A stretch of DNA of 64,000 nucleotides, from NCBI GenBank assembly GCA_903916675.1, contig CAIWXQ010000044.1, forward strand, positions 1,165 to 65,164, in the 5' to 3' direction. The translations under genes and the position numbers were made by a program. The stretch comes from an uncultured bacterium (GTDB taxonomy: Bacteria; Verrucomicrobiota; Kiritimatiellia; RFP12; CAIWXQ01). Below the pieces are notes generated by a model, which had not been told where the DNA came from, ran no database searches, and saw nothing but the letters and a program-made list of their open reading frames with translations. Within the stretch, counting starts at the first letter, position 1. Each line of letters opens with the position of its first letter. Below, piece by piece: positions 6,257-63,714 of this stretch.

Positions 6257-6353
6257 GGGACACGATCAGGACACAGAGAGCGCAGAGAGAAAAATGAGAA
6301 CACTGAGCAAATTTCTCTGTGCGCTCAGGAATTCTCTGTGATCTCTGTGTCCC
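6257..6353. repeat. Long imperfect hairpin built of CACAGAG/AGAGAGA words in the der-kdsD divergent spacer
   Basis: Left arm GGGACACGATCAGGACACAGAGAGCGCAGAGAGAAA. The reverse complement of the right arm reads GGGACACAGAGATCACAGAGAATTCCTGAGCGCACAGAGAAAT. Loop is about 18 nt. Confidence 0.65.
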
Positions 6354-17229: not shown

Positions 17230-18336
17230 TCAGCAGATCAGCATGCAATCTCCATAGGAAAAGAATCGGTAGCGCTGGGCAACCGCCTCGCGGTATGCGG
17301 CGAGCACACGCTCGCGGCCGGCAAAGGCGGCGACCATGGCCAGCAGGGTTGAGCATGGCAGATGAAAATTGGTCAGCAGCACATCCACGGCGCGGAACGC
17401 GAACGGTGGGCGGATGAAAATCTCCGTGCGCCCACTTGTGGCCACGATCCGGCCATCGTGGGCCGCGGCTACGGTTTCCAGCGTGCGGACCGAGGTACTG
17501 CCGACGGCAACTACGCGGCCTCCACGCGACCGGCAGGCGGCCATTGCGGCTGCGGTTGGCTCAGGAACGGAGTAGCGCTCGGACTCCATGCGGTGTTCGT
17601 CCAGTTCCTCGGTCTGAACCGGCTGGAAGGTGCCGGGACCGACATGGAGGGTCACAAAGGCGTGTGCGATACCCTGCGTAGCAAGGGTGACGAGAAGTTC
17701 CGGTGTGAAATGCAGGCCAGCCGTGGGCGCGGCCACAGCGCCGCGTTCGCGGGCGTAGACGGTCTGATAGCGTTCGCGGTCCAGCGCGCCGCGGGCATCG
17801 TCGTTCGCACGCCGGACGTAAGGCGGCACAGGCATGCGGCCGTGTGCCTCCAGAACGACGGTCAGCGGGCGATTCGCACACAGCCGGACCGTCACTCGTC
17901 CCCCGCCCTGCGCGTCCAAAATCTCGGCCGACACATGGCCCTCGGCCAGCATTGCCCGCTGGTCAGGGCGCGGGCGGCGACCGCTACCGCAGAGGCAAAG
18001 CCAGGTCTCGGAGAAAATGCCCCCGTCCGCCTTGTCCAACGGGGATGACGTGTCCGGCACCCCCACCCGCTCCAGCAGCAGCAGTTCAACCGCGCCACCG
18101 GTGTCGGACCAAGCGCCCAGAAGCCGCGCCGGAAAGACACGGGTGTCGTTGAGAACGAGCAGATCGCCGGCGCACAGATACTGCGGAAGATCGGCGACGG
18201 TGCGATGTTCCCACGAGCCGCTGGCGCGGTCCAGCACCAGCATGCGCGCCGCAGTTCGCACGGCTGGCGGCTCCTGCGCGATCAGATCCGGCGGGAGTTC
18301 GTAGTCAAAATCAGAGGTGCGCATGGGAAAAGTCAT
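17230..18336 (-). CDS. queA: S-adenosylmethionine:tRNA ribosyltransferase-isomerase QueA
   Basis: The N-terminus (MTFP)MRTSDFDYELPPDLIAQEP is typical of QueA. The alternative ATG at 18324 is equally plausible. Confidence 0.9.
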   Translation of the reverse strand: MTFPMRTSDFDYELPPDLIAQEPPAVRTAARMLVLDRASGSWEHRTVADLPQYLCAGDLLVLNDTRVFPARLLGAWSDTGGAVELLLLERVGVPDTSSPLDKADGGIFSETWLCLCGSGRRPRPDQRAMLAEGHVSAEILDAQGGGRVTVRLCANRPLTVVLEAHGRMPVPPYVRRANDDARGALDRERYQTVYARERGAVAAPTAGLHFTPELLVTLATQGIAHAFVTLHVGPGTFQPVQTEELDEHRMESERYSVPEPTAAAMAACRSRGGRVVAVGSTSVRTLETVAAAHDGRIVATSGRTEIFIRPPFAFRAVDVLLTNFHLPCSTLLAMVAAFAGRERVLAAYREAVAQRYRFFSYGDCMLIC

Positions 18337-18360
18337 TGGTCAGCGGTCATTGGGGAGAAA

Positions 18361-18449
18361 ACCGTGGAATATCGAATACTGAATCATGAAGAAATTAGAC
18401 ACGGGATTGACTTCCTGATTCTGCGGTTCACTATTCGATATTCCGCGGT
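18361..18449. repeat. GAA-phased heptad hairpin element (family copy; terminator-like after trxB)
   Basis: Left arm ACCGTGGAATATCGAATACTGAATCATGAAG. The reverse complement of the right arm is ACCGCGGAATATCGAATAGTGAACCGCAGAATCAGGAAG. On the minus-strand transcript the hairpin is followed by TTTTCT. Confidence 0.75.
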
Positions 18450-18472
18450 TTCCCATGCCCTGTCGCCATGGT

Positions 18473-19393
18473 TCAGTTCCGTTCCGAAAGAAACCGCAGG
18501 GCCTCCAGGGCGGCCATGCAGCCGGTACCGGCCGCGGTGACAGCCTGGCGGTAGGTGCGGTCCTGCACGTCGCCAGCGGCGAAAACGCCGGGGATGTTGG
18601 TGCGCGTGCGGTCCGCGACGATGTAGCCGTCCCCGTCCAGAGTGAGCTGGCCGCGAAACGGTGCCGTGTTGGGCGTGTGGCCGATGGCAACGAACAGGGC
18701 GTCCACAGAAACCACGGTCAACGCGCCGGTGACCGAGTTCTTCAGGCGCACGCCGGTGACGGTCTTCTGCGACACGTCCAGAACCTCCGCCACCACAGAG
18801 TTCCATGCCACCGCGATCTTCTCATTTTTCAGCAGGCGGTCAGCCATGATCGGGGAGGCGCGGAACTTGTCGCGCCGGTGGATGATCGTTACGTGCGAGG
18901 CCAGGCGCGCGAGGTAGAGCGCGTCCTCCATGGCGGTGTCGCCGCCGCCGACCACGGCCACGCGCTTGCCCCGGTAGAAGGCGCCGTCGCAGGTGGCGCA
19001 CCCGGAGACGCCGTGCCCCTTGAGCTGCTCCTCCGACGGCAGGCCGAGGTAGCGCGCGCTGGCGCCGGTGGCGATAATCACGACGCGCGCCTCCAGGGTC
19101 CCCTGCGCGGCGAGCTGCAGGCGCTTGGGGTCAACGGCCAGGTCGCAGCCGACCAGTTCGTCCATCTGCAACCGCACGCCCATGCGCTCCGCCTGCTGGC
19201 GCATGGCCATCATCAGGTCGAACCCGCCGATCGGGCCGGCAAAACCGGGAAAGTTCTCGATGTCCGTGGTCTGCGTGAGCTGACCACCGGGCTGCGGCCC
19301 CTCGATCAGGAGCGGATTCAGATTGGCGCGCGCCGAATAGATGGCGGCCGTGAGGCCGGCCGGGCCGCTGCCGATGATGACGACGTTCTCCAC
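18473..19393 (-). CDS. trxB: Thioredoxin-disulfide reductase
   Basis: GSGPAG FAD motif, redox-active CATCDG, and GGGDTAMEDA NADPH motif. GTG start. Confidence 0.93.
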   Translation of the reverse strand: MENVVIIGSGPAGLTAAIYSARANLNPLLIEGPQPGGQLTQTTDIENFPGFAGPIGGFDLMMAMRQQAERMGVRLQMDELVGCDLAVDPKRLQLAAQGTLEARVVIIATGASARYLGLPSEEQLKGHGVSGCATCDGAFYRGKRVAVVGGGDTAMEDALYLARLASHVTIIHRRDKFRASPIMADRLLKNEKIAVAWNSVVAEVLDVSQKTVTGVRLKNSVTGALTVVSVDALFVAIGHTPNTAPFRGQLTLDGDGYIVADRTRTNIPGVFAAGDVQDRTYRQAVTAAGTGCMAALEALRFLSERN

Positions 19394-19424
19394 GTGAGGT
19401 CCTTCCCATGTGCCGGGGCGGTGG

Positions 19425-19488
19425 GGATGCGGGAATCAGGATGCGGGATTCGAGATGCAGGATGCGGGATGCAGGGTTCAAGGTTCAG
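19425..19488. repeat. Short tandem low-complexity array based on GATGCGGGA/GATGCAG words
   Basis: GATGCGGGAATCAG GATGCGGGATTCGA GATGCAG GATGCGG GATGCAGGGTTCAAGGTTCAG, lying in the trxB/DUF4091 spacer. Confidence 0.6.
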
Positions 19489-19588
19489 CATGCATCATAA
19501 CAGGGTCGGCCGCCCCTGGGAAACCCCGGAATCGGGGCTGAACATCAGCAATCACCAGCGGCCTAAACCTTGGAGCGATCCTGTGCCT

Positions 19589-21461: not shown

Positions 21462-21590
21462 AATATTTTCCTCGTAATTGCTGTATTCGGTTGAAACGAT
21501 GCGTGGTGGCGCGGTTATGTCTATCACGCGTCCGGTCAGTCCCAACTGAATGATCTGCTCCATGGGAAGCATCCAGATGAGCTGGCCATT

Positions 21591-21720
21591 CGTCATTGGT
21601 CATTAGGGAAAAACGGATGAAAGTCCAAGCACGAGGTTGAGGCTGAACTTTCACGATTCGACATTCGCCGCTCGACGTCAGCCCCTGCCGTCCAGTGACC
21701 AATGACCACTAGCCAATGAC
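21591..21720. repeat. Inverted CATTGGTCA-type arms flanking a roughly 85-nt spacer
   Basis: CGTCATTGGTCATTAGGG (21591-21608) against CCAGTGACCAATGACCACTAGCCAATGAC (21692-21720). A related word, TCATTGGTCAGCGGTCATTGGGG, occurs at 18333-18355. Confidence 0.55.
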
Positions 21721-26303: not shown

Positions 26304-27737
26304 TCAACCCTTGCGTGCGGCGAGTTTCTCCGCCACCAGCTTCGAGGCCAGTTGCGGATCCGCCTTTCCCCGGCTCAACTTCATCACCTGCCCTACCAGC
26401 GCCTGCGCGGCGGCCTGCTTGCCGCCCAGAAAATCCTGCACTATCCGCGGGTTGGCCTCCAGTGTCTGGTCCACCAGCCTGCTGATCTCGTCCGCGTCAC
26501 CCATCTGCCCCAGCCCGCGCGCCGTCACCAGTAAGGCGGGGTTTCCGCCTGTCTCGAACAGCTCCGGCAACAGCCCCTTGGCAGTCGGCAGGTTGATCGT
26601 CCGCCGGTCCACCAGCGCAATCAGGTCTGCCAGCGTCTCCGGCGTCAGCGCGCACTGCGCCAGCGTGCAGTTGCGCTCACCTAGCAACCGCAGCACGTCG
26701 GTCATGATCCAGTTGGAGACCGCCTTGCCGTTGCCGCAGCGTGTCGCCGCTGTCTCGAAGAAATCCGCCACGGCCCGATCCGCTGTCAACACACCCGCAT
26801 CATACACGGGAATGCCGTAGGATTGCACCAGTCTTGTGCGTCGGTCTGCCGGACGCTCCGGTAGACCCGCCCGCCAAGCCTCGATCTGCGCACGGTCCAG
26901 CACCACCGGCAGGAGGTCGGGCTCGGGGAAATAGCGGTAGTCGTGGGCGTCCTCCTTGCTGCGCATGGGGAACGTCTCGCCACTGTCTGGCTCCCACCGG
27001 CGGGTCTGCTGCACCACCCGACCGCCGCCGGCCAGCAGGGCGCTTTGCCGGTCGATCTCGTACAACAGCGCCGCATGTACACCCTTGAAGGTGTTCATGT
27101 TCTTGATCTCGACCTTGGTGCCGAGTTTCTCCTGCCCTGCGGGGCGCACGCTGACGTTCACATCGCAGCGCAGGTTCCCCTCTTCCAGATTGCAGTCGCT
27201 CACGCCGGCATAGAGCAGCGTTTGCTTAAGCGCCAGCAGGAAGGCCATAGCCTCGTCCGCCGAGGCGAGGTCCGGCTCGGTCACAATCTCCATCAGCGGT
27301 ACGCCCGCGCGGTTGAAATCCACGCCGCTGCACGCCGCATGGTGCGTACTCTTGCCCACGTCCTCCTCGAGATGGATGCGCGTAAGGCGGATCGTCCTAG
27401 CCGCCCCGTTGACCACGATTGCCACGCCGCCGCCCAGACAAAGCGGCTTGTCGTACTGGGTGATCTGATAGTTCTTGGGCATGTCCGGATAAAAGTAGCT
27501 CTTGCGGTCGAACTTGCTGAACGTGCCGATCTCGCAACCCAGCATCAGCCCGGAGACCACTGTCTGATGGATCGCCTCCGCATTCATCACCGGCATGGCA
27601 CCCGGATACCCCAGGCAGACCGGGCAAACCTGCGTGTTGGGCGACGCGCCATACGCCGTGCTGCAGCCGCAGAACATCTTGGTCCGCGTGCGAAGCTGCA
27701 CGTGCACTTCGAGGCCGATGGAAGGAACGTAGTTCAT
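26304..27737 (-). CDS. gatB: Asp-tRNA(Asn)/Glu-tRNA(Gln) amidotransferase subunit B
   Basis: MNYVPSIGLEVHVQLRTRTKMFCGC N-terminus and a GatB/YqeY C-terminal domain. Confidence 0.95.
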   Translation of the reverse strand: MNYVPSIGLEVHVQLRTRTKMFCGCSTAYGASPNTQVCPVCLGYPGAMPVMNAEAIHQTVVSGLMLGCEIGTFSKFDRKSYFYPDMPKNYQITQYDKPLCLGGGVAIVVNGAARTIRLTRIHLEEDVGKSTHHAACSGVDFNRAGVPLMEIVTEPDLASADEAMAFLLALKQTLLYAGVSDCNLEEGNLRCDVNVSVRPAGQEKLGTKVEIKNMNTFKGVHAALLYEIDRQSALLAGGGRVVQQTRRWEPDSGETFPMRSKEDAHDYRYFPEPDLLPVVLDRAQIEAWRAGLPERPADRRTRLVQSYGIPVYDAGVLTADRAVADFFETAATRCGNGKAVSNWIMTDVLRLLGERNCTLAQCALTPETLADLIALVDRRTINLPTAKGLLPELFETGGNPALLVTARGLGQMGDADEISRLVDQTLEANPRIVQDFLGGKQAAAQALVGQVMKLSRGKADPQLASKLVAEKLAARKG

Positions 27738-27797
27738 GAGAGCAAGCGTTCGTTGCGATGCAGGACGTTCTTCGTCGCAGCGGCATCGGATTGAGAT

Positions 27798-27893
27798 CGT
27801 AGAATATCGAATATCGAAGGTCGAAGGTCGAAGGAAATATCAGACCGTGTCTTTCCTTCCTGATTCAGCGGTTCGACATTCGATATTCTGCGG
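27798..27893. repeat. GAA-phased heptad hairpin element (family copy) inside the gatA-gatB spacer
   Basis: Plus-strand left arm CGTAGAATATCGAATATCGAAGGTCGAAGGTCGAAGGAAA. The reverse complement of the right arm is CCGCAGAATATCGAATGTCGAACCGCTGAATCAGGAAGGAAA. Confidence 0.8.
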
Positions 27894-27900
27894 TTTGAAA

Positions 27901-29346
27901 TCACGGCACAGCTCCTCCGCTTCGCTCAAACGCCGCACCCACGCGAATGATCTTCTCCTCGCCAAAGGCCGGCCCCAGCACCTGCAGCCCCACCGGCAGT
28001 CCGACCCGGGTCCGGCCGCACGGCACCGATAGGCCGCAGATGCCGGCCAGGTTCGCGGTGACCGTGAAGATATCGCCCAGATACATGTGCAGCGGATCGT
28101 CCATGGTCTCGCCCAGCCGGTAGGCCGGCGCTGGCGTCACGGGCGTCAGCAGCGCGTCGCACTGCGTGAAGGCCGCATCGAAGTCGCGGCGGATCAGCGT
28201 GCGCACCTTCTGCGCCCGCAGGTAGTAGGCGTCGTAGTACCCGCTGCTCAGCACGTAGGTGCCGAGAATGATACGCCGTTGCACCTCGCTGCCAAACCCT
28301 TCCGCGCGGGTCTTCTTGTACATTTCGATCGGCGAATCGCCAGCCGCGGCACGAAACCCGTAGCGCACACCGTCGAACCGTGCCAGATTGGCCGAGGCCT
28401 CGGCTGCAGCCAGGATGTAGTAGGTTGCCACGGCGTATTTCGTGTGCGGAAGAGAGACTTCCACAATCTCGGCGCCCAGTTCTTGGCAACGCGCGATTGC
28501 GGCTTTCACGGCTGCTGCAACCTCCGGATTCATCCCGTCGACAAAATACTCGCGCGGCATGCCGAGGCGCATCCCGCGCAGGTCACCCTGTAGCGCCGCA
28601 GCAAAATCCGGCACGGACTTGTCGAGTGTCGTCGCATCCATCGCGTCGCGGCCAGCCATGACGCCCAGCAGCAATGCGGCGTCGGACACCGTGCGCGCCA
28701 GCGGACCGATCTGATCGAGCGACGACGCATACGACACCAGTCCATAGCGCGAGACGCGGCCGTACGACGGCTTCAGCCCCACGCAGCCGCAGAACGAAGC
28801 GGGCTGGCGCACAGACCCGCCCGTGTCGCTCCCCAGCGCCGCCAACGCCAGCCCACCGGCCACGGCCGCAGCCGAGCCGCCGCTCGAACCGCCTGCCACG
28901 TGGTCCGGCGCCGCAGGGTTGCGCGTCGGGCCATAGGCCGAATTCTCGGTGGTGGAGCCCATCGCAAACTCGTCCATATTTGTGCGGCCGACGAAAATCG
29001 CGCCGGCGGCGCGCAGCCGCGCAATAGCCGTGGCATCGTACAACGAGGTGTACCCCTTGAGAATCTTCGAGCCGCAGGTGCACGGCTGGCCAGCCACGTT
29101 CAGGACATCCTTGATGGCCAGCGGCACGCCGAGCAGCGCGCCGGCCTGGCCGGCCTGGCGTGCCGCATCCGCCGCCCCGGCCTGGTGCAGCGCATCGGCC
29201 GCATCCAGCCAGATGTAGGCGTTCAGCGCGGCGTGCTTCGCCGTAGCCGCCAGCACCGCGCGTGTCAACTCCACGGAGGAGAACGCGCCAGCGCGGATAC
29301 CGTCCACCGCCTGCCGAACCGTCAATTTATTGATTTCAGGAACCAT
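27901..29346 (-). CDS. gatA: Glutamyl-tRNA(Gln) amidotransferase subunit A
   Basis: Amidase signature region GGSSGGSAAAVA and overall collinearity with GatA. Confidence 0.95.
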   Translation of the reverse strand: MVPEINKLTVRQAVDGIRAGAFSSVELTRAVLAATAKHAALNAYIWLDAADALHQAGAADAARQAGQAGALLGVPLAIKDVLNVAGQPCTCGSKILKGYTSLYDATAIARLRAAGAIFVGRTNMDEFAMGSTTENSAYGPTRNPAAPDHVAGGSSGGSAAAVAGGLALAALGSDTGGSVRQPASFCGCVGLKPSYGRVSRYGLVSYASSLDQIGPLARTVSDAALLLGVMAGRDAMDATTLDKSVPDFAAALQGDLRGMRLGMPREYFVDGMNPEVAAAVKAAIARCQELGAEIVEVSLPHTKYAVATYYILAAAEASANLARFDGVRYGFRAAAGDSPIEMYKKTRAEGFGSEVQRRIILGTYVLSSGYYDAYYLRAQKVRTLIRRDFDAAFTQCDALLTPVTPAPAYRLGETMDDPLHMYLGDIFTVTANLAGICGLSVPCGRTRVGLPVGLQVLGPAFGEEKIIRVGAAFERSGGAVP

Positions 29347-29359
29347 ATGCTTCTTTCGT

Positions 29360-29452
29360 GAGGATTCAGGATCCAGGATTCAGAATGAGGGGCCGAAAAG
29401 TATCGTAGCCTTCCCCCATTCGGAATACTGAATTCTGAATTCTGAATTCTTC
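29360..29452. repeat. Heptad hairpin element (GAATTCA/GGATTCA words) inside the gatC-gatA spacer
   Basis: Left arm GAGGATTCAGGATCCAGGATTCAGAATGAGGGG. The reverse complement of the right arm is GAAGAATTCAGAATTCAGAATTCAGTATTCCGAATGGGGG. Confidence 0.7.
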
Positions 29453-31143: not shown

Positions 31144-31626
31144 ATGCCGATCGAGATCAAGATTCTGAGCGGTGGTGACGAAACCATGCTCCACCATGTG
31201 GCTGCAGGAGTTTTTGACCACGCCATAGACCAGCGCCGAAGCGTTGAGTTCTTGCATGATCCTCGTCATCACCTTGCGGTGGCCATTGACGCCGGAATTG
31301 TCGTAGGGTTCGCCTCAGCAGTCCATTATGTTCACCCGGACAAGAATCCTGAACTTTGGATTAACGAGATCGGAGTGGCACCGACTCATCGAAAACAAGG
31401 TGTGGCTGCGAAATTGCTTCAGGTATTATTCAAGGTCGGCCAGGATGCCGGTTGCGCGGAGGCCTGGGTTCTTACTGACCGATCAAACTCTGCCGCGATG
31501 CGACTTTACGCATCCCAAGGAGGAATCCCGAAGAATCAGGTACTGTTTGCGTTTTATTTTCGAGAGAATGCGATCAGGAAAGATGCTGACCAACCGGTGG
31601 CGGCCACAGCCAGCCGTGGACAGTAG
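31144..31626 (+). CDS. GNAT-family N-acetyltransferase
   Basis: Acetyl-CoA motif A region INEIGVAPTHRKQGVAAKLLQVL, followed by ...LTDRSNSAAMRLYASQGG. The layout loosely resembles small AAC(3)-I-like GNATs, by eye only. Confidence 0.8.
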   Translation: MPIEIKILSGGDETMLHHVAAGVFDHAIDQRRSVEFLHDPRHHLAVAIDAGIVVGFASAVHYVHPDKNPELWINEIGVAPTHRKQGVAAKLLQVLFKVGQDAGCAEAWVLTDRSNSAAMRLYASQGGIPKNQVLFAFYFRENAIRKDADQPVAATASRGQ

Positions 31627-31804
31627 AATCCTTGGGCCATACGTGGCTACGTGGAGCCGCGCGGCCAGCCTTGGCACGAGAGCAAATCCCATGACTAAAG
31701 AGGCGAAACTGAATTCAAAGAAATGGACCTTGGAAGAAGTTTATCAGGGCACGAGATTTGACCAATAAATTCCATCCCCGCCGTACTCTCTGGACAAGAA
31801 CAAC

Positions 31805-32449
31805 ATGATTCGATGTAAGGCCCTCTTTCAAGAACGTGTTCTGCCCGGTGCAGGCGAGATGATACCGGACGACGCCTTCTCAATGCCTAAATGGGTCTTC
31901 ATGGAATACCTGGTCAAATTTCAGAATACACTTCTTCACGGATCGCCCCAACGGATCGCCCAGTTTGAACCCCGGTCATCGCAGGACAATATTGTAAACG
32001 GCCATTTGCCACGGGTATATGCCGCATCAAGCGGAATCATGGCGACCTTCTATGCCATTATTGACAGACCCTTTCTGGCGAAGCATGGCGTGGGAGCCAT
32101 CAACGTTTTTTACGCCCCCTACCATGATGTTTCCGAAAAAACCTGTGATGGATTTCAGTTTGCGGTTGACTACAGATGCCTGCCGAAGAGGCCGTATCAA
32201 AAAGGCTTCGTGCATGTGCTTTCACGGAAAACCTTACGCTCGGATTATATGGGAATACAATGGTGTTCAGAAGTGGCAGTGGGACCGCAAGCGGTGATCG
32301 AGATGCGCCCGGAGGATTTTCCCCTTTTGCCTGCGATCCGCGGCATCGACTGGGAGGTGCTGGCGCGAAACCATGCTGATGCCATGGACGGGTTCCCGTG
32401 GGTTGATGACAAGTCACTGTACCCATCCATTGCGAAACGGACGATTTGA
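31805..32449 (+). CDS. Hypothetical protein; possible PARP-like (H-Y-E type) ADP-ribosyltransferase fold
   Basis: 214-aa ORF with an ATG start in the lower-G+C islet. LLHGSP (H45), VYAAS (Y72), FYA (Y83) and CSEVAV (E156) have spacing similar to PARP/tankyrase catalytic cores. The functional call is speculative. Confidence 0.5.
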   Translation: MIRCKALFQERVLPGAGEMIPDDAFSMPKWVFMEYLVKFQNTLLHGSPQRIAQFEPRSSQDNIVNGHLPRVYAASSGIMATFYAIIDRPFLAKHGVGAINVFYAPYHDVSEKTCDGFQFAVDYRCLPKRPYQKGFVHVLSRKTLRSDYMGIQWCSEVAVGPQAVIEMRPEDFPLLPAIRGIDWEVLARNHADAMDGFPWVDDKSLYPSIAKRTI

Positions 32450-42837: not shown

Positions 42838-43938
42838 CTACCTGCCGTCGCGTGCGGTTGACTTGTTGAGCCATTCATCTGTGAAGGTGATTTTGCGGCG
42901 AACTATGGCGGCATCGTTCCAGCGCTCCCATCCGCCTTCTGGCGAAAAGGTATAGTACACATAGAACTCTTTCCCGGTTCGGCGTGGATCATCAAGGAAT
43001 CCTATGATTGAAGGATAAAAAGCTTCGCCATTCTCAGCTGCGAGTTTCCTGCGATCACTCCAATGGATGCCGTCCTCCGAGCAGGTTAGGAATAAATCCA
43101 CACATTGAGGAGAAGTATTGGCAGCTATGATCATGACAAACTTGTCAAGAGCCGCGTTGTAGCTGATGTCCATCCATCGCGTGCCGGGATTCCCTCTTTC
43201 CAGGGGGCTGGATTTTCCGCCTACGGCAGGCTCCGAAAATGCACCATTGTAGTACTTTGTCCATTTTGCACTCTTGCCACCAATACCAGCCTGGATGACC
43301 TCTGCGATGCTCGCTCTTGCTAAGGACAGGTTGCTTTGCCGCGAATTTTCATCCGTCATGGCATCTCGAGCATAGACGTAAAAATATTCATCCTTGATTA
43401 TGTAAGCTGATCCGCAGACCTCTACGGCACTTTCGGCCTGCGCGTTAGGAATATTGGCTAAGAAAATGGGCCCCAAGTCTTTGAACTTCAGGCCTTGTTC
43501 ATCGGTCTGGATTGAGAGACCCAGCACGCTGTAGAAGTTCTTATACGTGCCACGATGGAACTCCGCATGGTAGAAGAGGAAGATGCGATTCGACTTTGGA
43601 TCACGGAAGAGTGGCCCTCCCGCAAGGTACTGGAATTCCTTATTATCTGTGGCGATGGAAACGCGATCTACCCTTTGCAACGGATTTCCCCTGTTGCCGG
43701 TGACTCGGACCGGCTCGCGGCCGTTGGCACCATACATTCGCACATCGTCGCCACTTGTCAGCACTCCACAGTTGCCATCCATGAACCACTTCAGTCCCAG
43801 GGCGTCTCTCTGTTCCTTAGTTGCGATGACTACCCTCTCACCCACGATGCAGGCGGGAGGTTCGGCAGAAAATACAGCCGCATTGCTTACGACCACTGCG
43901 GCCGTCGCAAGAAGAAGGTTCTGCATAGCAATTCCCAT
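42838..43938 (-). CDS. Secreted hypothetical protein with an Asp-box (BNR-like) motif, possible beta-propeller glycosidase-like fold
   Basis: Signal peptide MGIAMQNLLLATAAVVVSNAAVFSA. An SxDxGxxW match (CSEDGIHW). Lower G+C than the flanks. The ORF-track start at 43959 is GTG. Confidence 0.55.
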   Translation of the reverse strand: MGIAMQNLLLATAAVVVSNAAVFSAEPPACIVGERVVIATKEQRDALGLKWFMDGNCGVLTSGDDVRMYGANGREPVRVTGNRGNPLQRVDRVSIATDNKEFQYLAGGPLFRDPKSNRIFLFYHAEFHRGTYKNFYSVLGLSIQTDEQGLKFKDLGPIFLANIPNAQAESAVEVCGSAYIIKDEYFYVYARDAMTDENSRQSNLSLARASIAEVIQAGIGGKSAKWTKYYNGAFSEPAVGGKSSPLERGNPGTRWMDISYNAALDKFVMIIAANTSPQCVDLFLTCSEDGIHWSDRRKLAAENGEAFYPSIIGFLDDPRRTGKEFYVYYTFSPEGGWERWNDAAIVRRKITFTDEWLNKSTARDGR

Positions 43939-43976
43939 GAGAATTACTTCTTCGCGCACAATGCCATTTCACAAAA

Positions 43977-44828
43977 TCACGGCTCGGCCCGGGGATCCAA
44001 TTGCCGCGGATGCCGGCTGGGCGTGCCGAAGTAGAAGGCCTCGTTTTTCGCGAGCTTCATCGGCATCCGGTTGTGGATCCATCCCCCTTCGGAAAGACCG
44101 TCCGGGAAATCGTGGACCAGCATGCCGGCGCGGTTGACCGGTAGTTGTTGGGCAATAGTGGCGTCAGGTCGCGCCACAAAGCTCCCCCAATTCGAGTACC
44201 GCTGCGACGAGTTATTCGCCACGGCCCACATGAGGTTGTCTGCGCAACGGGTGGGAACCTGACGGACGTTCAGCACATCCAGGCAGCTGGGCCCCTTGTG
44301 CCGCGCGTTGAAAAAGGAGTGCAGCACCAGCCGGGCGCCCCGCTCACGGTACGCCGCGTAGAGCTGCGGATAGCAGATGTCATAACAGATGGCAAACCCG
44401 ACCTGCACGCCCCGGATCGGCAGCGTCACCAACCGGTTTCCCGCAGAAAAGACGCGCTGATCTTCCACCGTACACATGCATTTGTCGTACCGGTCGGCAA
44501 TTCTGCCGGCCGGATCGATGATGTACAGGCAGTTGGTCGGCCTGGTTATTTTGTCAAGAAAATGCGCAGAGCCCAGAATCAGCCAAAGCCGCAGGTCCCT
44601 GGCCAGTTCCCGCAGCCGTTGCGTTTCGCAGCGCAGGGCGTCCCAGTCATACCGGCGAAAGGAGAAAAATTCGGAACCCGCATAGCCGGAAAGCGCGGCT
44701 TCCGACGTGTGCAGGAGATGCGCCTGCGCCTGCTTCGCCCGACGCAGATAGCGCCGGATGGCTTCCGCGTTTTTCGCAATGTCACCGGACACGGGAAACT
44801 GACAGGACGCTACGCGAAGCTTGTGCAT
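43977..44828 (-). CDS. Carbon-nitrogen hydrolase (nitrilase superfamily)
   Basis: MHKLRVASCQF N-terminus. Glu (TSEAAL), Lys (RYDKCM) and Cys (FAICYDICYP) catalytic-triad contexts. Confidence 0.8.
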   Translation of the reverse strand: MHKLRVASCQFPVSGDIAKNAEAIRRYLRRAKQAQAHLLHTSEAALSGYAGSEFFSFRRYDWDALRCETQRLRELARDLRLWLILGSAHFLDKITRPTNCLYIIDPAGRIADRYDKCMCTVEDQRVFSAGNRLVTLPIRGVQVGFAICYDICYPQLYAAYRERGARLVLHSFFNARHKGPSCLDVLNVRQVPTRCADNLMWAVANNSSQRYSNWGSFVARPDATIAQQLPVNRAGMLVHDFPDGLSEGGWIHNRMPMKLAKNEAFYFGTPSRHPRQLDPRAEP

Positions 44829-44937
44829 GCAGACCTCCGAACATGGCGAATCAAACGACATCGGCCCACGGGGAGAGCCATCTTGATTTCTGATTCCAGA
44901 ACAAAGTCTGAAATCTGCACCCCTTCGAAATCGCTCG

Positions 44938-45594
44938 CTAGTTCGGCGCCAGCAGCTTGATCTCGAACTTCTCCAGATTGTCCAGGACCAGGTCCGCGGG
45001 TGCGATGTTCTGGCGTGGTGCATCGCGGCGCGCGAGCGCCACGCAGGTCATGCCGGCCGCCTTGGCGGCGCGCACACCGGCGGCGGAATCCTCAAACACC
45101 ACGCAGGTGGACGGATCCACCTGCAGCCGCTGCGCCGCCAGCCGGAAGCAGGCGGGATCCGGCTTGCCCGGCTGGTAGTCCTCGGCGCCAAGAAAAAAAC
45201 GGATGAATGGGGCCGCGCCTAGAATCGCCACGTTGTCGGCAATGTCTTGGCGAGGCGAACCAGAGACGATCGCCACGGGGTAGTCCGCGGCCAGGCGTAC
45301 CAGCAGTTCGATTGACCCCACGATGCGCACATCGGTCTCCGCGCGCAGGCGGCGGTGGGAGGAGCGCAGCTCCGCGGCAACGCGCTCGATGCCCGCTGCC
45401 ACGGCATGCGGGAAGCGCCGGCTCATCTCGGTGTAGACGTCGTTCCAGGATCGACCGTACACCAGCGCCACAGCTTCCTCCTGCGTGCAGGGAATGCCGT
45501 GTCGTTGCAGATACTCGCGAATGGCGCGAATCCAGAGGATTTCGGTATCCACCAGCGTACCGTCGAGGTCGAAGAAAAAGGCTTGGATCGTCAT
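44938..45594 (-). CDS. HAD-superfamily hydrolase (beta-phosphoglucomutase-like subfamily IA)
   Basis: Motif I FFFDLDGTLVDTE. Later SGS, K and FEDSAAG (motif IV) elements. Confidence 0.8.
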   Translation of the reverse strand: MTIQAFFFDLDGTLVDTEILWIRAIREYLQRHGIPCTQEEAVALVYGRSWNDVYTEMSRRFPHAVAAGIERVAAELRSSHRRLRAETDVRIVGSIELLVRLAADYPVAIVSGSPRQDIADNVAILGAAPFIRFFLGAEDYQPGKPDPACFRLAAQRLQVDPSTCVVFEDSAAGVRAAKAAGMTCVALARRDAPRQNIAPADLVLDNLEKFEIKLLAPN

Positions 45595-47363: not shown

Positions 47364-47458
47364 CCGAACCGCAGAATATCGAACACCGAACCGCAGAATC
47401 ATGAAGGATTGAGGAGCGGATGCCGTTAGCCTCACCTCACGATTCTGCGGTTTTGTTT
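47364..47458 (+). repeat. GAA-phased heptad hairpin element (family copy; terminator-like after ilvC)
   Basis: GAACCGCAGAAT occurs twice (47366-47377, 47388-47399). The arm ACCGCAGAATATCGAACACCGAACCGCAGAATCATGAAGG pairs partly with CCTCACCTCACGATTCTGCGGTT, followed by TTTTGTTTCC. Confidence 0.75.
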
Positions 47459-63640: not shown

Positions 63641-63714
63641 GCGGGCGTAATTCAATGGCAGAATGTGAGCTTCCCAAGCTCAACACGGGGGTTCGATTCC
63701 CCTCGCCCGCTCCA
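63641..63714 (+). tRNA. tRNA-Gly (anticodon CCC), CCA encoded
   Basis: The cloverleaf folded by hand. Acceptor GCGGGCG/CGCCCGC, D stem ATTC/GAAT, anticodon stem TGAGC/GCTCA with loop TTCCCAA, T arm GGGGG-TTCGATT-CCCCT, discriminator T, then CCA. 74 nt. Confidence 0.92.

Follow-up and report, generated by a model that had tools for sequence, protein, structure and literature searches.

A Heptad Hairpin Between gatA and gatB

The question raised by this locus is why a long hairpin stands between two genes of gatCAB, and whether it serves the operon or was brought there as a repeat. On the minus strand, which is the transcribed direction, a spacer of 163 nt separates the gatA stop codon (27901) from the gatB start codon (27737). 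In the window, which here means the whole 64-kb stretch of DNA that was analysed, gcvT and gatC come before the gatA/gatB pair and pilB-like ATPase genes come after it. The organism is Kiritimatiellia-like, its GatA and IlvC being 82% identical to proteins of a "Kiritimatiellia bacterium". The features of the locus are as follows:

27901..29346 (-): gatA (NCBIfam TIGR00132, E 1.7e-177)
27798..27896 (-): copy 1, full extent of the hairpin between gatA and gatB (sequence, RNA fold, nhmmer)
27852..27896 (-): conserved 45-nt family arm on the 5' side of copy 1, AAACCGCAGAATATCGAATGTCGAACCGCTGAATCAGGAAGGAAA (agrees with the 92-arm consensus)
27838..27851 (-): apical loop of copy 1, 14 nt (sequence and fold)
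27798..27837 (-): degenerate complementary arm on the 3' side of copy 1, reading CGTAGAATATCGAATATCGAAGGTCGAAGGTCGAAGGAAA on the plus strand (sequence, TRF period 7)
27738..27797 (-): rest of the inserted spacer, from the hairpin to the gatB start, missing in relatives (alignment with L124, L125 and L126)
26304..27737 (-): gatB (NCBIfam NF004012, E 8e-190)

Read by words, the 5' arm is AAACCGCA GAATATC GAATGTC GAACCGCT GAATCAG GAAGGAAA, and the reverse complement of the 3' arm is GAATATC GAATATC GAAGGTC GAAGGTC GAAGGAAA. TRF detected period-7 arrays in the 3' arm (27802-27834), which contains perfect short tandem runs of GAATATC (two units) and TCGAAGG (three units). The nhmmer arm matches covered 27855-27896 (E 1.5e-12) and 27795-27818. 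For the transcribed strand the computed RNA fold had an energy of -40.2 kcal/mol (z -4.1), and for the opposite strand one of -47.7 kcal/mol (z -5.3). A second, small hairpin was visible at about 27757-27790, in the remainder of the spacer. No T-run follows copy 1 and no promoter-like or terminator-like site was predicted in the gatA-gatB spacer; an intrinsic terminator was rejected for this copy on these two grounds, as the original prediction had also concluded from the missing U-run.

Other Copies in the Window

Two more copies and one fragment of the same family were located in the window:

18359..18451 (-): copy 2, in the spacer between trxB (18473-19393) and queA (17230-18336) (sequence, fold, nhmmer)
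47366..47458 (+): copy 3, downstream of ilvC (sequence, fold, nhmmer)
21650..21677 (-): family fragment (GGCGAATGTCGAATCGTGAA), enclosed by the loop of a different heptad hairpin, 21582-21720

The arms of copy 2 correspond to 18411-18451 (5') and 18359-18391 (3'), with a fold of -44.6 kcal/mol (z -6.2). In copy 3 (-39.5 kcal/mol, z -5.0) the 5' arm extends from 47366 to 47407, and pairing is limited to the inner unit AACCGCAGAATC, facing 47438-47452 (GATTCTGCGGTT). The resulting 13-bp stem is followed by TTTTGTTT, and copy 3 looks like a terminator. A related hairpin past ilvC in L137/L138, an 88% relative, ends with GCGGTTTTTATGTTT. Some copies plausibly act as terminators, whereas copy 2 and most members of the family resemble copy 1 in having no T-run.

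The core GAATATCGAANNNNGAACCGC, with 17 specified bases, was found three times exactly and eight times with up to three mismatches in the window, for 0.11 occurrences expected by chance. Self-similarity at lag 7 was confined to intergenic DNA (34 windows; 0 in coding sequence; 0 for lags 3-12). The RNA folds of the three window copies ranged from -40 to -48 kcal/mol on both strands, with z values of -4.1 to -7.1 against dinucleotide shuffles, and all three copies lie in the sense orientation, a few to about 20 nt past a stop codon. The original prediction of a dispersed family of stable hairpins, with three copies, their coordinates, their heptad phasing and the position in the gatA-gatB spacer, agreed with these folds and with the sequence.

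The Family Arm and Its Distribution

The 45-nt family arm, GAACCGCA GAATATC GAAyAnn GAACCGCA GAATCAT GAAGt, is a 22-nt unit present twice and made of words of 7 or 8 nt, each starting with GAA. The consensus of 92 distinct arms was nnGAACCGCA GAATATC GAAyAnn GAACCGCA GAATCAT GAAGt. GAA is invariant at the start of the words and the later positions vary. The core terminal repeat of about 18-19 bp is GAACCGCAGAATATCGAA ... TTCGATATTCTGCGGTTC, and the 5' arm often has it doubled with a 22-nt period. The 59 hairpin copies had a median length of 108 nt. Solo arms, nested copies and variable loops are all present, a picture also known from MITE families undergoing decay.

The pattern GAATATCGAANNNNGAACCGCNGAATC (22 specified bases) was run against bacterial and archaeal genomes, with each species represented once. 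In these species-representative genomes 20 loci were found, in MAGs from at least five phylum-level lineages, where by our own calculation about 0.07 matches would be expected by chance in 596 Gb, both strands included. According to the record titles, the lineages were Verrucomicrobiota (six loci in one MAG), Planctomycetia (four loci in one MAG), Kiritimatiellales, several Desulfobacterota, Gammaproteobacteria/Pseudomonadota and one unclassified bacterium. The same pattern was present in 100 stretches of metagenomes. Contrary to the original assumption, the family is not genome-specific: the same order of different words is shared by the three window loci and by over 100 loci in other organisms. 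About 92% of the non-redundant copies lay outside called ORFs.

The arm was about 85-100% alike in genomes of 41-74% GC belonging to several phyla, and its own GC content was 0.45 +/- 0.03 for a host GC of 0.41-0.74. Such a near-constant 45-nt arm is unusual among MITE/REP-type elements. Subfamilies can be told apart by their variable tetramer, outer flank and loop, and they follow the host GC class, which indicates amplification inside lineages after spread between them.

A literature search with the arm sequences returned unrelated primer matches only, and BLAST against plasmid and phage collections gave no family match. The full pattern had no match in viral contigs. An 18-mer had seven, mostly solo arrays just upstream of start codons; a role in 5' UTRs, considered on the basis of these matches, was dropped as no such bias existed among the solo arms of the larger set. 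The excess of copies at contig ends, taken as a proxy for high copy number, was not significant (12 observed for 8.7 +/- 2.7 expected).

Filled and Empty Sites in Relatives

In relatives with GatA identities of 87% (L124), 86% (L125/L128) and 83% (L126/L129), gatA and gatB overlap by 4 nt (ATGA), and the whole 163-nt spacer of the window is therefore extra sequence. Another relative (L127, 85% GatA identity) possesses a different, GC-rich insertion of 266 nt at this junction (2833-2948), which seems permissive for insertions. In L124 the gatA/gatB junction is empty and a near-symmetric copy of the GAACCGCA family is located in the gatC-gatA spacer. This latter spacer measures 111 nt in the window, 60 nt in L125 and 3 nt in L126; in the window it is occupied by another heptad hairpin (29361-29450), whose arm, in the transcribed direction, has the words GAATTCA GAATTCA GAATTCA GTATTCC GAATGGG ... 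and is matched by a complementary arm.

The length of the ilvC-VOC spacer also varied, with 143 nt in the window, 143 nt at 94% IlvC identity, 121 nt at 89% and 2 nt at 86% (L139/L140). The spacers around trxB measured 195 and 136 nt in the window and 89 and 3 nt in L129. Filled and empty sites were thus found at gatA/gatB (empty in L124, L125 and L126) and at ilvC/VOC (empty in L139 and L140). Each of these comparisons is between species, not between near-isogenic strains. This presence or absence of spacers among relatives implies that the elements are gained and lost as species diverge and that they land in very tight junctions.

At gatA/gatB, the hairpin is a lineage-specific insertion and does not look like a dedicated signal of the gat operon. 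Among the roles proposed from the sequence of the window, that of a miniature repeat fits best. A dedicated processing or stability site of gatCAB is unlikely, as the closest relatives are without the spacer and one of them has the element at gatC-gatA.

Two observations fit less easily with an insert that is selfish and decaying and nothing more. Between L036 and L098 the arm was 86% identical over 57 nt at an orthologous spacer, whereas the flanking proteins were just 74% and 49% identical, which hints at a constraint or at homogenisation. In many Desulfobacterota copies an asymmetric layout is conserved, the GAACCGCA of the 5' arm being left unpaired. Continuing turnover or gene conversion, or selection on the arm sequence, could be the source of both.

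Orientation, Conservation of the Arms and RNA Families

The orientation of the copies was deduced from gene calls made with a heuristic combining ORF length and third-position GC. Between co-directional genes, 15 non-redundant copies were in sense and 15 in antisense orientation, and the figures were 43 and 44 when copies with just one known flank were counted. Separating hairpin copies from solo arms left the random orientation unchanged. A fixed orientation relative to transcription, proposed from the three copies of the window where it is seen in 3/3, does not extend to the family, and random orientation was one of the outcomes named as refuting an RNA-directed element. The arms form an inverted repeat, so that a GAA-phased 5' arm is found on either strand; the sole real asymmetry is which of the arms holds the conserved 38-45-nt version.

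In an alignment of 22 sequences taken across the subfamilies, 18 consensus pairs were present, most of them invariant, with a covariation term of -0.07 kcal/mol. Both arms are conserved as sequence, as in terminal inverted repeats, rather than through compensatory change. The variable tetramer had its exact complement in the arm of the same copy in 25 of 113 copies, for 10.7 +/- 2.6 when arms were permuted; this better match within copies fits with subfamilies having their own repeats. The complement strand folded more stably in 44 of 59 copies. This difference was put down to the choice of strand and to AT-to-GC mutation pressure, and was discarded as functional evidence.

No Rfam family matched the whole window, three loci searched at gathering score or four loci searched at E values up to 5, the output consisting of a tRNA and chance matches to miRNA models. 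The element thus belongs to no RNA class described in Rfam, as the original prediction had suspected. With no Rfam match, a random orientation and unrelated neighbouring genes, it does not behave as a riboswitch or other cis-regulatory RNA.

Search for a Mobilising Partner

About 120 loci, representing approximately 0.7 Mb, were searched by nhmmer for inverted arm pairs separated by kilobase distances, and none was found. An all-against-all blastp of 2369 neighbouring ORFs from the loci revealed no recurrent transposase; the recurring neighbour families were ABC ATPases and MotA/ExbB only, both ubiquitous. No RAYT-like gene was seen near the copies in about 120 loci examined. The flanks of at least 30 complete copies showed no target-site duplication, although a 2-nt duplication would be possible given the fuzzy boundaries, which are blurred because more heptads often adjoin the element. 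Copies were also found inside the loops of other heptad hairpins, in the window (21582-21720) and in L085, L093 and L118.

The family resembles MITEs in size, in its terminal inverted repeats (GAACCGCAGAATATCGAA / TTCGATATTCTGCGGTTC, with near-invariant pairs), in its dispersal and in the existence of filled and empty sites; no target-site duplication was present in the DNA examined, nor any cognate IS sharing its ends. A REP/REPIN identity was rejected since the single arm is not a palindrome: the arm consensus is almost free of T and has no internal complement. Integron attC sites, Spo0A boxes (TGNCGAA), ECF-sigma promoters, CsrA GGA motifs and Rho YC phasing were judged coincidental or not applicable.

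Comparison with Known Repeat Systems

REP units are themselves palindromes mobilised by RAYT, and REP-type elements can protect upstream mRNA. The GAA family shares with REP, BIME and REPIN sequences the extragenic palindromic arrangement, the short spacers, the presence inside operons and the long hairpins formed by two inverted units. The GAA arm differs from the REP unit in being almost T-free and not self-complementary, and by the lack of a RAYT-like gene near the copies examined. SPRITE and other terminator-like repeats find a parallel in copy 3 and in the L137/L138 hairpin, both with a terminal T-run that could stop transcription; copies 1 and 2 and most members have no T-run.

The MITEs Correia, ERIC, RUP and Chunjie are short, non-coding and intergenic, with terminal inverted repeats and truncated or solo copies, and MITEs can sit within operons without destroying them, being co-transcribed as hairpins (PMC10969869). 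Each of these four has been described within one genus or family, whereas the GAA family spans phyla. The GAA family further differs from them (from Chunjie by its description) in the absence of a target-site duplication and of a parent IS among the loci searched, and in arms made of phased heptads.

The closest heptameric system is that of the heterogeneous GGGAATC repeats of Xanthomonas, with about 185 repeats per genome, of which 70-75 convergent inverted pairs are capable of forming stem-loops (Rehm et al. 2015, PMC4692102). As in the GAA family, these repeats are intergenic, with heterogeneous 7-nt units, conserved positions and convergent stem-loop pairs, and they differ in length and sequence from one related species to another (PMC4692102). 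The period 7 detected by TRF, the intergenic lag-7 signal and the invariant GAA place the GAA family with such heptameric inverted repeats, and GGGAATC read in another register is GAATCGG, also a GAAT word. The Xanthomonas units are rich in G and have been investigated, within a single genus, for their ability to form G-quadruplexes (PMC4692102). The GAA family is devoid of G-runs and has a 45-nt arm with a fixed order of different words across phyla.

Intergenic heptamer arrays common to distant lineages are also known for TAACTGA and for the cyanobacterial STRR heptamers (PMC4679880). TAACTGA direct repeats occur in Beggiatoaceae, Cyanobacteria and Bacteroidetes, and a horizontal spread by a mechanism not known was suspected (PMC4679880). 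These are direct repeats of one word, mostly located just 5' of start codons (PMC4679880), whereas the GAA family has several words in a conserved order, mostly as inverted pairs and with no 5' UTR bias.

Origin and Possible Role of the Hairpin

We propose that the gatA-gatB hairpin is probably a non-autonomous MITE- or REP-like palindromic repeat that was inserted in gatCAB and is co-transcribed as a hairpin with a passive role, REP-like side effects being possible. In this model, lineage-specific subfamilies would have been amplified, by transposition in trans, in the genomes of several phyla, which implies that the family spread between lineages at some point. In the Kiritimatiellia-like genome, copies would have landed at the tight junctions gatA/gatB, ilvC/VOC and trxB/queA. 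The ancestral overlapping gatA-gatB junction would have been split by the insertion, and a hairpin of about -40 kcal/mol would now be part of the gatCAB mRNA. At this locus the operon may simply tolerate the element as cargo, and any side effect would be no more than REP-like; a barrier to 3' exonucleases, the loss of translational coupling between gatA and gatB, and partial termination are candidates. Where a T-run happens by chance to lie 3' of the element, as past ilvC, it might double as an intrinsic terminator.

It is unlikely that the hairpin is instead a host-beneficial cis-acting RNA kept by selection, setting the relative expression of gatA and gatB, and of other neighbours, as a REP-like site of mRNA stabilisation or processing or as a U-tract-poor attenuator or terminator. 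The very stable folds on the transcribed strand speak for such an RNA, as do the sense position of all three window copies close behind a stop codon, the intrinsic-terminator-like ends GCGGTTTT(T/G)... of copy 3 and of the L137/L138 ilvC hairpin, and the arm retained between L036 and L098 in spite of saturated flanks. These points have to be set against the random orientation across the family, the lack of a consistent gene association, the paired positions without covariation, the gatA-gatB spacer devoid of predicted promoter-like or terminator-like sites, and the closest relatives, which manage with overlapping genes. The phased GAA words, with their 7-nt period and 22-nt super-period, could also be an array read, one word per subunit, by a conserved nucleic-acid-binding protein whose specificity, and not mobility, would conserve the sequence across phyla. 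The invariant GAA followed by variable positions, the conservation of the arm over a host GC of 0.41-0.74, the conserved asymmetry with GAACCGCA left unpaired, and the abundance of GAAYnnn heptad hairpins made of other words in the window genome and its relatives are consistent with this idea. So is the analogy with cold-shock domains, of which one is bound per heptamer, and with the TAACTGA repeats, for which a regulator was proposed (PMC4679880). We nevertheless find such an array quite improbable: no candidate protein or co-occurring gene emerged among the loci, presence or absence differs between close relatives, and the same order of different words between loci points to common descent and not to convergent selection.

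The latter observation also counts against an origin by replication slippage in place, in which heptamer repeats would have arisen and then been duplicated in inverted orientation without any mobility. Heptamers are an over-represented class of long SSRs in many bacteria, for which polymerase slippage was proposed (PMC4679880, PMC4692102, citing Mrazek 2007), and the perfect tandem runs of GAATATC and TCGAAGG in the 3' arm of copy 1 are of this type. Slippage can remodel arms and cannot independently create a 45-nt order of non-identical words shared by three window loci and over 100 loci elsewhere; there is hardly any chance that it explains the element, and as the origin of the family it is essentially excluded.

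Under the preferred explanation of an inserted MITE/REP-like repeat, the family accounts for the odd long spacers in the tightly coupled operons of Kiritimatiellia-like MAGs and is a possible marker of recent insertion. It also offers a searchable handle on the cause of the excess of heptamer repeats in the intergenic DNA of bacteria, and on the way in which they spread. Its cross-phylum conservation is the part deserving follow-up. One rather doubtful extension is that the GAA arm is the recognition site of a widespread protein encoded elsewhere, for example a recombinase or transposase leaving no target duplication, or a heptad reader. If this were true, the GAAYnnn hairpins of PVC bacteria, Desulfobacterota and Xanthomonas would possibly form one undescribed cross-phylum system, and for any such binding or mobilising protein the family would supply the bait sequence.

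Other Repeats and Genes

Several other repeats were observed close to members of the family. The 130-nt hairpin at 21582-21720 of the window, which encloses the family fragment 21650-21677, has TCATTGG/CCAATGA heptad arms, a word which we take to be the same as the cyanobacterial STRR2 TTGGTCA. Next to copy 2, CAATGAC heptads at 18330-18357 cover the start of queA. About ten heptads (GGGATGC, GGGAATC, GGGTTCA ...) form a direct array without inverted partner upstream of trxB, at 19424-19499, and GGGTTCA (= GAACCCT) heptads flank family copies in L085, L093, L118 and L135. A separate hairpin and array type with a 6-nt period (TCGnnA / GATnnC) is common to the window genome (2313-2420 and 42038-42072), a Verrucomicrobiota MAG and a Kiritimatiellia-like relative, with examples at 2130-2160 in L019 and 396-744 in L129. 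An intergenic inverted repeat, GGACACAGAGAGCGCAGAGA / TCTCTGTGATCTCTGTGTCC, 90% complementary, lies between divergent genes at 6269-6352 of the window.

Outside the window, solo arrays directly precede start codons in L132, L133 and L136. In L131 (6898-6960 and 9012-9075), the N-termini of two neighbouring paralogous ORFs resemble signal peptides. Each ORF starts in or just after GAACCGCAGAATATCGAATATCGAACCGCAG, and the array would be translated as ..EEPQNIEYRTAV.. if the first ATG is used. In the Verrucomicrobiota-type loci L004, L016, L019, L055 and L117, the module GGACGGATTsGGCTCACGCGAAGGCGCAAAGmCGCGAAGAGG is found approximately 40-60 nt beyond solo arms. Different copies (L056, 4468-4600; L106, 2286-2415; L122, about 1330-1380) have in common a GC-rich loop module, CCCCTCCkCGGAGGGGTGGCCGmAGGCCGGGGTGGGT, which suggests a modular or nested composition. 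Divergent arms, consisting of a TTC arm, 14-50 nt and a GAA arm, occur in L018 (3073-3190), L019 (2275-2395) and L135 (1650-1730), and could be the abutting ends of two elements or a junction form.

Two regions of the window, 31144-32449 and 42838-45023, show a low third-position GC against a GC3-rich background and encode a GNAT acetyltransferase, 214-aa and 373-aa ORFs and a CN-hydrolase-like ORF. These genes are possibly acquired DNA; no transposase was seen at the two regions. The sole Rfam match of the window was a tRNA gene at 63641-63711.
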